A stretch of 5,040 bases of DNA from a virus (taxonomy: Duplodnaviria > Heunggongvirae > Uroviricota > Caudoviricetes): IMG/VR virus record IMGVR_UViG_2681813201_000012; one strand, given 5' to 3'. A program made the position numbers and the translations under genes. The notes beneath the pieces were generated by a model. The model was not told where the DNA came from and searched no databases. It worked only from the letters and a program-made list of their open reading frames with translations. Positions 1 through 4,932 of the stretch are shown here, in pieces (positions within the stretch are counted from its first letter, which is position 1; the number at the start of each line of letters is the position of its first letter).

Positions 1-12
1 TCAGCACTGACT

Positions 13-615
13 TCATGGCATGGCCATGAGCATTTTCACGTCCGCATCACCGTCTGCTGACGTCTGTGGCACGCCACCCTGTACCGCTGCCGGTGAATGG
101 TTCGCCATGATGCGTTCAAACAGGGCGGTTGTGGATGCAGAGACCGGTTCTGCCTTACCTGATCCCGCAGCCAGCACAGCCCGGGCGCTCTCCACAGTCA
201 TTCCCGGGCAGGCAGCCAGCTGTTCAGCCTGCGCCTCAGCCCCTTTTGCCTCATCCAGTGCCATGATCTGATCACGGAGTGAGGGTCCGGCATCCGCCTG
301 CGGTGAAGCAGCCAGGATCGGGCGGGCTTTTTCCACCGTCATCTCCGGCATCGCCGCCAGCGTTGCCGCCAGTTGTTCACGACCGTTCGCTTCTTCACAC
401 GCCATAATGCGATCGGCTTCACTCTGCGTGGATGCCACCGGCTGCTGCGGTGCCGCCGCGGCCAGAATCGCCCGGGCCTGTTCAACGCTCATGCCCTGTT
501 GTCCTGCCAGCATCGTGGCAAGCTGTTCACGTCCTTTCGCTTCCTGGCATGTCAGGATCCCCATCACTCGCTGGTTCTCCTGCGCGGCGGCTTCCGTTGC
601 AGTTAATTGCGGCAT
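13..615 (-). CDS. Nu3: Nu3-like scaffolding protein, nested in-frame in the 3' part of C (internal ATG at 615-613, same stop as C), about 200 aa
   Basis: There is an internal in-frame ATG (minus strand, plus coordinates 613-615) preceded by AGGAGG (plus 620-625) with a 4-nt spacer. This is the same arrangement as lambda, where Nu3 starts inside C after AGGAGGGCGA-ATG. The local context GG-T-M-PQL corresponds to lambda GG-R-M-TKE. Use of this internal start is inferred by analogy, not demonstrated. Confidence 0.55.
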   Translation of the reverse strand: MPQLTATEAAAQENQRVMGILTCQEAKGREQLATMLAGQQGMSVEQARAILAAAAPQQPVASTQSEADRIMACEEANGREQLAATLAAMPEMTVEKARPILAASPQADAGPSLRDQIMALDEAKGAEAQAEQLAACPGMTVESARAVLAAGSGKAEPVSASTTALFERIMANHSPAAVQGGVPQTSADGDADVKMLMAMP

Positions 616-1170
616 AGTGCCTCCTCTGACATTACTGTTCAGCGCCGTGGCCATCACACTGATGGCATCCGACGCATTGACTAATTCATCCGCCAGCCCG
701 GCATCAATGCCGTACTGACCTTCAAAAACGGCGGCCTCTGTTCCCGTGACGGCATCAACAGACAGACCGGTAAACATCGCCACTTTTTCGGCAAACATCC
801 GGCGCGCCGCATCAATGCGCTGCTGCATGTCCTGGCGAACCTCTGCCGGTAAGGCTTCAAACTGATTGCCATCCACCTTGTGCGTCCCTGAGTAAATCAG
901 CGTGATATCCACACCGGCCTGCGCCAGATGACCGGCATAGCTGACATGGCTCATCATCACGCCAATGGAGCCGATACGGGATGTCTGGGTAACCAGCCGT
1001 CGGGAGCAGGCCGACGCCAGCAGCATGGCTGCAGAACAGGCCGTGTCATTGCACAGTGCCCAGACCGGCTTCTGCTGACGGAGGCGGTAAATCATGTCAG
1101 CGCAGTCAAACGCGCCGGCGGCCTGCCCGCCCGGACTGTCAATGTCCAGCAGTACGCCCCGCACCTGGCT
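13..1170 (-). CDS. C: Head maturation protease / minor capsid protein C (S49 ClpP-like peptidase family), 5'-truncated by the N run; stop codon at 13-15
   Basis: The translation after the N run (SQVRGVLLDIDSPGGQAAGAFDCADMIYRLRQQKPVWALCNDTACSAAMLLASACSRRLVTQTSRIGSIGVMM...) aligns by recall with lambda gpC residues from about 120 onward (DGILLDMDTPGGMVAGAFDCADIIARVRDIKPVWALANDMNCSAGQLLASAASRRLVTQTARTGSIGVMM...). The first ~120 residues are absent, lost in the N run at 1171-1236. Gene order B then C matches lambda. Confidence 0.85.
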   Translation of the reverse strand, partial: SQVRGVLLDIDSPGGQAAGAFDCADMIYRLRQQKPVWALCNDTACSAAMLLASACSRRLVTQTSRIGSIGVMMSHVSYAGHLAQAGVDITLIYSGTHKVDGNQFEALPAEVRQDMQQRIDAARRMFAEKVAMFTGLSVDAVTGTEAAVFEGQYGIDAGLADELVNASDAISVMATALNSNVRGGTMPQLTATEAAAQENQRVMGILTCQEAKGREQLATMLAGQQGMSVEQARAILAAAAPQQPVASTQSEADRIMACEEANGREQLAATLAAMPEMTVEKARPILAASPQADAGPSLRDQIMALDEAKGAEAQAEQLAACPGMTVESARAVLAAGSGKAEPVSASTTALFERIMANHSPAAVQGGVPQTSADGDADVKMLMAMP

Positions 1171-2266: not shown

Positions 2267-4305
2267 TCACTCCTCCGGACAGCTTCGCTGCCAGTTCTTT
2301 CAGGGTTGGCCGGGTCGTCTCTTCTTCCCGGGATTTTGCCAGTACAGCCAGATCAAGCTGCCAGCGTTGCACGGACACACGTAATGCCGCGTAGGCATAC
2401 ACCAGGCAGTCCAGCGCTTCGTTACGCCGCTTTTTGTTATCCCACAGCAGACGCATCTTTCCTTTTTCCCACTTCTCCACAAGCTCTTCCGCGACCAGTT
2501 GCTGCGCCTCTGTCTGCGAAAAAATCTCCGGATCATCAGGAAAACGGATGGCATACGACGTGGCTTCATCCGCAGGAGTGGGATCGGCTTTCATACGGGC
2601 ATAGAGAATTTCTTTTGCGGTGTCCGTCCCCACTTCACACAGATACACGCCCCGCTGATTGCGGGTTTTCGGCATGGTGATCACCGGCTTGCCATAGACA
2701 GATGCGCCTTTTACCGGCAGCACCCGGAAAACACCGTGTTTTTTTGACCTCTGATAGACAATTTCACCATCGATCCCCCCGGTGTCCCAGCAGACACGGG
2801 AAATGGTCATTTCGGTTCCGTCTGCATGGCAGTATTTTTTGTTGATCGCCGCATCCACACGTAACAGCGTCTCTTCCTCATCGGGACGGCCCATAATGAT
2901 GATTTTATCCACCAGAAAAGCTTCCTCCCCGNNNNNNNNNNNNNNNNNNNNNNNNNNNNNNNNNNNNNNNNNNNNNNNNNNNNNNNNNNNNNNNNNNNNN
3001 NNNNNNNNNNNNNNNNNNNNNNNNNNNNNNNNNNNNNNNNNNNNNNNNNNNNNNNNNNNNNNNNNNNNNNNNNNNNNNNNNNNNNNNNNNNNNNNNNNNN
3101 NNNNNNNNNNNNNNNNNNNNNNNNNNNNNNNNNNNNNNNNNNNNNNNNNNNNNNNNNNNNNNNNNNNNNNNNNNNNNNNNNNNNNNNNNNNNNNNNNNNN
3201 NNNNNNNNNNNNNNNNNNNNNNNNNNNNNNNNNNNNNNNNNNNNNNNNNNNNNNNNNNNNNNNNNNNNNNNNNNNNNNNNNNNNNNNNNNNNNNNNNNNN
3301 NNNNNNNNNNNNNNNNNNNNNNNNNNNNNNNNNNNNNNNNNNNNNNNNNNNNNNNNNNNNNNNNNNNNNNNNNNNNNNNNNNNNNNNNNNNNNNNNNNNN
3401 NNNNNNNNNNNNNNNNNNNNNNNNNNNNNNNNNNNNNNNNNNNNNNNNNNNNNNNNNNNNNNNNNNNNNNNNNNNNNNNNNNNNNNNNNNNNNNNNNNNN
3501 NNNNNNNNNNNNNNNNNNNNNNNNNNNNNNNNNNNNNNNNNNNNNNNNNNNNNNNNNNNNNNNNNNNNNNNNNNNNNNNNNNNNNNNNNNNNNNNNNNNN
3601 NNNNNNNNNNNNNNNNNNNNNNNNNNNNNNNNNNNNNNNNNNNNNNNNNNNNNNNNNNNNNNNNNNNNNNNNNNNNNNNNNNNNNNNNNNNNNNNNNNNN
3701 NNNNNNNNNNNNNNNNNNNNNNNNNNNNNNNNNNNNNNNNNNNNNNNNNNNNNNNNNNNNNNNNNNNNNNNNNNNNNNNNNNNNNNNNNNNNNNNNNNNN
3801 NNNNNNNNTGGTTGGCGCCTGCGCCGCCCAGGCACCAGAAACCGACGCCCGATGAAAAGCGTTTCAGCGTGAGAGTATTGTCACGATGTTTACGACCCAG
3901 CCATGGGGAAAGGTCTTTCAGGCATGGCACGTTCCGAATCGTCGCCTCCACGTGAGACTTCATAAAATCTTCAGCGGCAGAATCCGTGGGCTGAAAAAGC
4001 AGACTGTTTCGGGATTTATGCTCAATAAAATACCCGACCACCCCCAGCAACATCTTTGTATAGCCAACACGGGCAGATTTAATCAGGTTAACCGTGCGAA
4101 CCTGGTCGTTACCCATACAGTTCATAATGGCGATCTGGAATGGCAGCGTTTTCCATTCGCCCTCACCGTATGAGGATTCTTTAGGCAGATAATAATTTTG
4201 ATCAGCCCATTCAACTGCCGTCATTGGTACAACCCTGACCAGAGGCTGCAGCGCAACCGAAACGGCAGCCATCATATTATTCAGTTGTTGCTCTGATATA
4301 TTCAT
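2250..4305 (-). CDS. A: Terminase large subunit (lambda gpA family); N-terminal part at 3809-4305 and C-terminal part at 2250-2931 are readable, the middle (2932-3808) is N
   Basis: The N-terminal part from the ATG at 4305 (MNISEQQLNN...TAVEWADQNYYLPKESSYGEGEWKTLPFQIAIMNCMG...SARVGYTKMLLGV...FIEHK...RDNTLTLKRFSSGVGFWCLGG) aligns with lambda gpA residues 1 to about 165. The C-terminal part (GEEAFLVDKIIIMGRPDEEETLLRVDAAINKKY...ICWDTGGIDGEIVYQRSKKHGVFRVLPVKGASVYGKPV...WDNKKRRNEALDCLVYAYAALR) aligns with lambda gpA from about residue 417 to the end. The two parts are in different reading frames across the 877-nt N run, so the true length of the hidden sequence is unknown. The ORF-track start at 4362 is upstream of the lambda-like MNIS start. 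Confidence 0.9.
2932..3808. other. Run of 877 N (gap or masked sequence) inside the terminase large subunit gene
   Basis: Directly visible run of n. It replaces the region expected to encode gpA residues from about 167 to 416, including the ATPase centre. Confidence 0.95.
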
Positions 4306-4832: not shown

Positions 4833-4844
4833 TCATGTCCGGTT
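4833..4844 (+). repeat. R-like element copy 1 (TCATGTCCGGTT), candidate small-terminase binding site; part of the dyad AACCGG-TCATGT-CCGGTT at 4827-4844
   Basis: Exact 11-bp match CATGTCCGGTT shared with 4864-4874 and, inverted, with 4922-4932. Position is analogous to lambda cosB R1, proximal to Nu1. Confidence 0.45.
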
Positions 4845-4862
4845 TACATGTCTGTTTTTTGT

Positions 4863-4874
4863 TCATGTCCGGTT
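4863..4874 (+). repeat. R-like element copy 2 (TCATGTCCGGTT), direct repeat of copy 1 about 30 bp away
   Basis: Exact repeat of CATGTCCGGTT, with a spacing of about three helical turns from copy 1. Confidence 0.45.
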
Positions 4875-4920
4875 CACAGAAGACCTGTTTTTATATTTTT
4901 CATATAGTTAACTTGAAGAG

Positions 4921-4932
4921 AAACCGGACATG
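4921..4932 (-). repeat. R-like element copy 3 (inverted: AACCGGACATG on the plus strand), cosN-proximal, analogous in position to lambda R3
   Basis: Exact reverse complement of the 11-bp element, located about 38 bp from cosN. Confidence 0.45.

Follow-up and report, generated by a model that had tools for sequence, protein, structure and literature searches.

Three diverged copies of a Nu3-type core module in the scaffold region of a phage-21-type head gene pair

Results and Discussion

A nested protease/scaffold gene pair in a lambdoid late operon

The DNA examined here, a stretch of 5,040 nucleotides from the IMG/VR virus record IMGVR_UViG_2681813201_000012 (hereafter the window), carries on its minus strand the left end of a lambdoid late operon, which reads in order through the cosB R boxes, the genes for the small and large terminase subunits, head-tail joining and portal genes, and a homologue of the lambda C gene. 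This gene order is that of a lambda-type C/Nu3 pair, with minus-strand open reading frames (ORFs) resembling nu1, A, W and B and then the C homologue, and in both phage 21 and the prophage of Escherichia coli EDL933 the decoration and capsid genes are found just past the window's left end. Two runs of N interrupt the sequence. A run of 66 N at 1171-1236 replaces approximately 1100 bp of phage 21 and EDL933 sequence, namely the last part of the portal gene together with ~123 codons at the start of phage 21 gene 5, and the 5' end of the C homologue is lost in it; a second run of ~880 N at 2932-3811 replaces ~752 bp of the large terminase gene. Neither run keeps the length of what it replaces, and the ORFs that read across them (a 410-aa C ORF and a 485-aa A ORF) are chimeras. 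The 410-aa translation used in a preliminary description of this DNA is an artefact of the shorter run, and the true C homologue is a protein of 501 aa. The repeat coordinates given below fall wholly within unmasked sequence.

The portion of the C homologue that remains in the window matches the Pfam family Peptidase_S49 (PF01343) over fragment residues 30-177 with an E value of 6.3e-35, and the long product also contains a SppA_dom match (E = 5e-28) that falls under the NCBIfam equivalog cut-off, as expected for a phage protein. Nested in the same frame and ending at the same stop codon is a gene for a 200-aa protein (Table 1), whose coordinates correspond to the gene 6 CDS in the GenBank record M81255.1 and to the 'scaffolding protein' of OL657228.1. 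Three stretches of this protein match the lambda Nu3 families PHROG 8399 'head scaffolding protein' and PHROG 8940. The Shine-Dalgarno sequence that we read upstream of the internal ATG is close to the ribosome-binding site (RBS) annotated in M81255.1, which sits at the equivalent of window 622-626. As read from the sequence, an internal in-frame start with its own predicted RBS would thus give rise to a short scaffold that shares its C-terminus with the protease.

Table 1. Features of the protease/scaffold gene pair and its repeat units (window coordinates)
Feature	Position	Strand	Remarks
Gene 5 / lambda C homologue, 3' part	13-1170	-	385 codons + stop; S49 prohead protease, then scaffold region
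Nested in-frame scaffold gene (phage 21 gene 6 / lambda Nu3 homologue)	13-615	-	200 aa, MPQLTATE...LMAMP
Shine-Dalgarno sequence GAGGAGG	620-626	-	4 nt upstream of the internal ATG (613-615); read from sequence
R1, QRVMGILTCQEAKGREQLATMLAGQQGMSVEQARAILAAAAP	448-573	-	Nested-protein residues 15-56; GenBank 'Tri1 box' = window 445-548
R2, ADRIMACEEANGREQLAATLAAMPEMTVEKARPILAAS	304-417	-	Nested-protein residues 67-104; GenBank 'Tri box' = window 298-408
R3, LRDQIMALDEAKGAEAQAEQLAACPGMTVESARAVLAAGS	160-279	-	Nested-protein residues 113-152; GenBank 'Tri3 box' = window 154-267
C-terminal tail past R3	16-159	-	48 aa; includes ERIMANHS (~100-126) and the conserved end LMAMP; AF2 pLDDT 45-63

At the DNA level, window 1-1170 shares 98.5% identity with coliphage 21 (records M81255.1 and OL657228.1) and 93.9-98.6% with 17 further full-length Escherichia phage records. 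M81255.1, deposited as 'Bacteriophage 21 head gene operon', has features for gene 5 and for gene 6 nested in it, together with the RBS of the latter, and marks three repeat_region features within gene 6 that bear the note 'function unknown; putative'. The positions of these phage 21 'Tri boxes' correspond to those of the three units that we delimited independently in the window. Based on the extent of DNA identity, the matching annotated coordinates, the S49 domain upstream and the strong Shine-Dalgarno sequence preceding the internal ATG, it is very probable that the locus is a phage-21-type pair comprising a 501-aa S49 protease and a 200-aa scaffold that share one frame and one C-terminus and carry the Tri boxes. 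By the same sequence comparison, the repeat is the Tri box triplication of phage 21, an already known and ordinary feature of phage-21-type head genes. Long annotated as the repeat itself is, what is new here is the one-copy norm, the age of the triplication, the selection acting on each copy and the existence of copy-number variants. The operon record was reportedly accompanied by a paper by Smith and Feiss (1993, Gene 126:1-7), and our search of a literature library returned nothing relevant on the Tri boxes, on the phage 21 head-gene paper or on works citing that paper; a preprint on CBASS and prohead proteases proved to be unrelated.

The window and coliphage 21 have in common the gene pair, the three repeats, their coordinates and the internal start with its RBS, and they differ by point substitutions only; for example, R2 reads RIMACEE in the window and RIMVCEE in phage 21, and the tail reads ALFERIMAN in the former and AMFEHFMAN in the latter. 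Over window 90-620, prophages of E. coli O157:H7, EDL933 among them, carry copies with 100% identity. On sequence grounds the window is a prophage allele of the phage 21 locus, with its closest copies (99.6-100% identity over the repeat region) in E. coli O157:H7. The EDL933 copy (NZ_CP120944.1), which is 99.6% identical to window 1-1170, is an intact 501-aa protease/scaffold gene. In the same prophage the major capsid gene is a truncated pseudogene that abuts a tail gene (positions 5719-5982 of the extracted locus), indicating that at least some three-copy alleles are found in defective prophages.

Three diverged units of one module in the scaffold region

The preliminary description had placed three diverged copies of a single module at 166-573, and the peptides that it quoted are all present in the minus-strand translation of 13-615, with a span that is right to within a few bases. 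Each unit is ~40 aa in length and conforms to the signature RIM..(C)xEAxGRExxAxxLAxxPGMTVExARxILAAxP. Pairwise local alignments among R1, R2 and R3 (BLOSUM62) yield scores of 83-100, compared to 22-24 +/- 4-5 (maximum 51) for 2000 composition-preserving shuffles, which corresponds to z = 12-18. Together with the unit profile described below, these alignments uphold the reading that a ~40-aa module has been triplicated in tandem within the part of C/Nu3 that the two products have in common. Protein identity between units is 21/35, 19/36 and 22/36 (53-61%), and DNA identity across the codon-aligned unit cores is 58-67%, with only 12-13 of 33 third codon positions (~37%) identical between units. 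As a consequence of protein similarity having been upheld while silent sites drifted, a direct-repeat search finds nothing beyond short DNA echoes. These fall into two families: D1, in which 259-273 is repeated at 401-415, a pair also picked out in the preliminary description, and D2, which is made up of 'LAxxL' codons.

Tandem Repeats Finder detected no array in window 1-700, as the DNA divergence between the copies is too great. Both this null result and the alanine content of the repeat region (23%) might be taken to favour an artefact, be it assembly expansion, very recent slippage or a chance resemblance within an alanine-rich, low-complexity tail. We consider this explanation refuted. 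The same three copies are present in 19 phage records, namely M81255.1, the complete phage 21 genome of 2022 and 17 others, and window 90-620 is found at no less than 80% coverage in 1865 of 5426 complete E. coli genomes (about a third), with up to five copies per genome. Moreover, an assembler would neither collapse nor expand copies with the DNA identity reported above, and the z scores against composition-preserving shuffles argue against chance.

A possible fourth remnant of the module had been proposed at ERIMANHS, in the C-terminal tail. Its alignment to every unit scores no better than shuffled sequence (z = -1.1 to 0.2), and we conclude that the array consists of three units. The peptide is placed opposite the ...DRLMQG... 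stretch that lies past the single copy of lambda, and an alignment of the entire tail to the lambda tail is not significant (z = -0.6).

Lambda carries a single unit

The lambda C/Nu3 pair resembles that of the window in its S49 domain, its in-frame nested scaffold with a common C-terminus, its placement with the portal gene on one side and the decoration gene on the other, and its possession of the conserved module, which in lambda reads NSRIMGILNCEEAHGREEQARVLAETPGMTVKTARRILAAAP. This lambda unit matches R1, R2 and R3 by blastp with E values of 1.6e-17, 3e-12 and 5.5e-12, respectively. The lambda sequence had been given exactly in the preliminary description, and the single copy ascribed to it there is borne out by a profile HMM of the unit, which identifies one domain in lambda C and three domains in both phage 21 gp5 and the window. 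Outside of the module, the lambda flanks fail to align with those of phage 21. The single lambda unit follows a non-conserved leader of ~48 aa, whereas proteins of the phage 21 type possess a leader of 14 aa and then three units, and the C homologues are 439 aa and 501 aa long, respectively.

How the scaffolds compare in length depends on the start assigned to lambda Nu3. A nested scaffold of about 200 aa in the window, as originally described, is correct, but the accompanying statement that the lambda protein is shorter holds only if Nu3 starts at MTKETQ, which gives 131 aa; the RefSeq nu3 CDS (NC_001416; 833-1438 of the extracted locus) encodes 201 aa and starts at MDATRQ, inside the S49 domain. 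It is MTKETQ, located 70 codons downstream of the RefSeq start, that is homologous to the start of phage 21 gene 6, and thus the lambda and phage 21 annotations of the nested gene are not equivalent. Experimental support for a 131-aa gpNu3 that begins at MTKETQ is said to have come from Medina et al. in 2011.

One unit is the norm and the triplication is old

We searched 1.84 billion representative proteins with a profile of the three window units and obtained 409 matches at E <= 1e-3. Among the matches listed, 143 further representatives comprise 135 proteins with one unit, six with two and two with three. Long representatives (at least 380 aa) among the matches listed contain one unit in 51 of 52 cases, with a median distance of 52 residues from the unit to the C-terminus, and single units also occur in proteins of ~130 aa. 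In those representatives that were scanned with Pfam, an S49 domain lies upstream of the unit. Across species-representative genomes, three units are found in Escherichia, Shigella, Trabulsiella and Providencia, and one unit in lambda, Enterobacter, Klebsiella, Erwinia, Serratia and Aeromonas; Salmonella alleles have three. One copy is the norm, and the triplication is a minority architecture that is nonetheless widespread in enterobacterial prophages.

Some lambda-type matches fall outside of this distribution. Single-copy C sequences of the lambda type occur on short contigs of ~1x coverage from Kitasatospora, an Akkermansia MAG, Neobacillus, Shewanella, Bradyrhizobium and others, and these are almost certainly lambda control-DNA contamination. 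In three further proteins (P0124, P0125 and P0144), the lambda C protease and unit are joined to tail protein U, tail protein L or a tape-measure domain. We set these chimeras aside as uninformative on the module; they probably arose by deletion within vectors derived from lambda, or by misassembly, rather than in nature.

In a neighbour-joining tree of the units, all R1 sequences are found together, beside the single-copy units of lambda, Enterobacter, Klebsiella, Serratia, Erwinia and Aeromonas, while the R2 sequences of E. coli, Salmonella and Trabulsiella form a group of their own, as do their R3 sequences. Since units group by position across these three genera, the triplication is, by the sequence record, old, inherited and of single origin. 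A comparison of the window to Trabulsiella, in which dS is about 1.0-1.4, gives dN/dS ratios of 0.10 for both the protease domain and R1, 0.22 for R2, 0.32 for R3, and 0.38 for the linkers and tail. As judged by these ratios, purifying selection keeps each of the three copies.

Natural copy-number variants and the standing of R2 and R3

Alleles with fewer or more units also exist among the E. coli prophages, and all belong to the same family and contain the same module as the window. Two-unit relatives include P0020, which carries an exact R1/R2 hybrid, and P0021 and P0016, both of which have lost R2 by a deletion that matches the unit precisely. An intermediate form, found in the complete genome of E. 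coli WP3-W18-ESBL-08 (NZ_AP022003.1) and in protein clusters P0009 and P0011, has an in-frame deletion of 57 bp, equivalent to window 308-364, that removes the second half of R2. This deletion is flanked by an 8-bp near-repeat (GCAGCCAG / GCCGCCAG) that corresponds to the 'LAA' codons of adjacent units, and its sequence is that of a microhomology deletion inside the repeat array. The R2-deletion variants may in some cases reside in defective prophages. At the other extreme, P0027 contains four units, and the clustering of its units 2-4 with each other in the unit tree indicates a separate, later expansion. The suggestion that repeats of this kind can vary by recombination is thus supported by natural alleles with two, ~2.5 and four copies, and copy number is a variable character of the phage-21-type scaffold lineage.

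Since some natural alleles have dropped R2 in whole or in half, a full set of three may be dispensable. This raises the main rival to a role for every unit, according to which only R1, the counterpart of the single lambda copy, is functional, and the other two are extra copies that the protein tolerates and that serve mainly as flexible filler or spacer, open to degradation by the protease within the prohead. R1 clusters with the units of single-copy proteins and has retained the longer N-terminal helix (ENQRVMGIL), its dN/dS ratio equals that of the protease domain while those of R2 and R3 are looser, and a single copy is enough in lambda and in nearly all of the long representatives among the matches listed (51 of 52). 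Against this, R2 and R3 keep the whole signature (EAxG.E..A..LA..P.MTVE.AR..LAA) despite saturated synonymous sites, each has been kept at its own position in different genera, and their dN/dS ratios are lower than that of the linkers and tail. The three-copy form also dominates within E. coli, where the 1865 genomes with full cover compare to only five matching records below 80% cover. On balance, we find it somewhat unlikely that R2 and R3 are filler.

Predicted structure of the units

In keeping with a check proposed in the preliminary description, we examined structural predictions of the repeat region. The AlphaFold2 (AF2) model of the 200-aa protein, which was built from a shallow alignment of 20 homologues and has a mean pLDDT of 69, predicts helical units (pLDDT 73-84) that are separated by low-confidence linkers. 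Modelled individually from an alignment of three sequences, a single unit is predicted to fold into two helices, a long one followed by a short one, joined by a loop at PGM (pLDDT 83). A PDB sequence search with the repeat protein produced no matches at E <= 1, and Foldseek found nothing in the PDB below E = 1 with either the 200-aa model or the single-unit model, although a global fold search with the former is uninformative because the model resembles beads on a string. No family in Pfam or NCBIfam covers the repeat unit, to which the only matches are sub-threshold ones to HHH and DUF7178.

The first of these sub-threshold matches bears on the idea that the units are nucleic-acid-binding motifs akin to the helix-hairpin-helix (HhH), by which the scaffold would touch DNA, for instance while exiting during packaging. 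The stretch LAxxPGMTVExARxIL does resemble the HhH pattern hxxhPGIGxxxAxxIh, and Pfam HHH (PF00633) matches R3 with an E value of 0.018. However, this match is confined to R3 and scores 15.3 bits, compared to a gathering cut-off of 24 bits, and where the HhH hairpin has its second glycine, every unit has T or S instead. Furthermore, the units are neutral to acidic, with net charges of +1, -2 and -3 for R1, R2 and R3, which is unfavourable for DNA binding, and the Foldseek searches of the PDB gave no structural match to HhH proteins. A DNA-binding role of this type is therefore very unlikely.

Another parallel, albeit a loose analogy and not a case of family membership, is the coat-binding domain of the P22 scaffold gp8, which offers a plausible model of how a scaffold could dock to the capsid protein. 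The P22 domain is a small helical hairpin in an otherwise flexible scaffold, and the shallow-alignment AF2 models predict such a hairpin for each unit described here. The P22 hairpin is basic and is located at the extreme C-terminus, whereas the units are neutral to acidic, internal (48 residues follow R3) and three in number, and there is no sequence similarity or significant structural similarity between the two. The C-terminal helix-turn-helix of the P22 scaffold binds coat protein, as cited in PMC11922011.

A possible docking role for the module

Across the family, the module is the only part of Nu3 that is conserved, and it is common to the protease and the scaffold. For lambda, contacts of Nu3 with E, of Nu3 with itself, of C with Nu3 and of Nu3 with B are compiled or reported in PMC3224144, where the Nu3-E contact is attributed to two-hybrid analysis. 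From these lambda contacts, and from a module that is conserved family-wide and present in both proteins, we infer that the unit could dock the protease and the scaffold in the nascent shell via the major capsid protein, scaffold self-association or both. Three units borne on flexible linkers would render each scaffold or protease molecule multivalent, and this multivalency could alter the number of capsid subunits bridged per molecule rather than the T number. We put forward this combination of docking and multivalency tentatively, as a reasonable possibility by analogy to lambda. Taken as a whole, the best explanation for our observations, and in our view a probable one, is that of a phage-21-type scaffold with three Nu3 core modules that may serve in docking.

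The proposal that repeat expansion changes head geometry is unlikely to hold, since the heads of phage 21 and of lambda are both T=7. A bolder extension of the docking model is that the copy number of the Nu3 module (1, 2, ~2.5, 3 or 4) functions as a tunable valency knob, with each unit docking one capsid subunit or one neighbouring scaffold. We regard this as speculative and rather improbable. Were it true, multi-copy scaffolds and proteases would bridge several capsomers, and the nucleation rate, the scaffold-to-capsid stoichiometry or the loading of the protease would be altered; lineages would adjust copy number by unequal recombination to suit their own capsid protein, and the alleles would constitute a simple natural genetic series on how scaffold valency controls procapsid assembly. 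The natural allelic series of one to four copies could in any event be used for probing the role of the module. For annotation purposes, the Nu3-type core module deserves a domain model, as the label 'S49 family peptidase' hides the fused scaffold region.

Other features of the window

We found no promoter-like or terminator-like sites in window 1-1170. OL657228.1 annotates CII binding sites (TTGYN6TTGY) at the equivalents of window 363-376 and 597-610 on the plus strand, antisense to the scaffold gene, and one of these is within R2. We attribute these sites in the repeat region to chance, as two are found where 0.8 are expected and at least two arise in 39 of 200 shuffles. Three copies of CATGTCCGGTT precede the small terminase gene, at 4833-4848 and 4863-4878 in direct orientation and at 4921-4932 in inverted orientation, which are the counterparts of the phage 21 cosB R1-R3 boxes annotated as gp1 binding sites in M81255.1.
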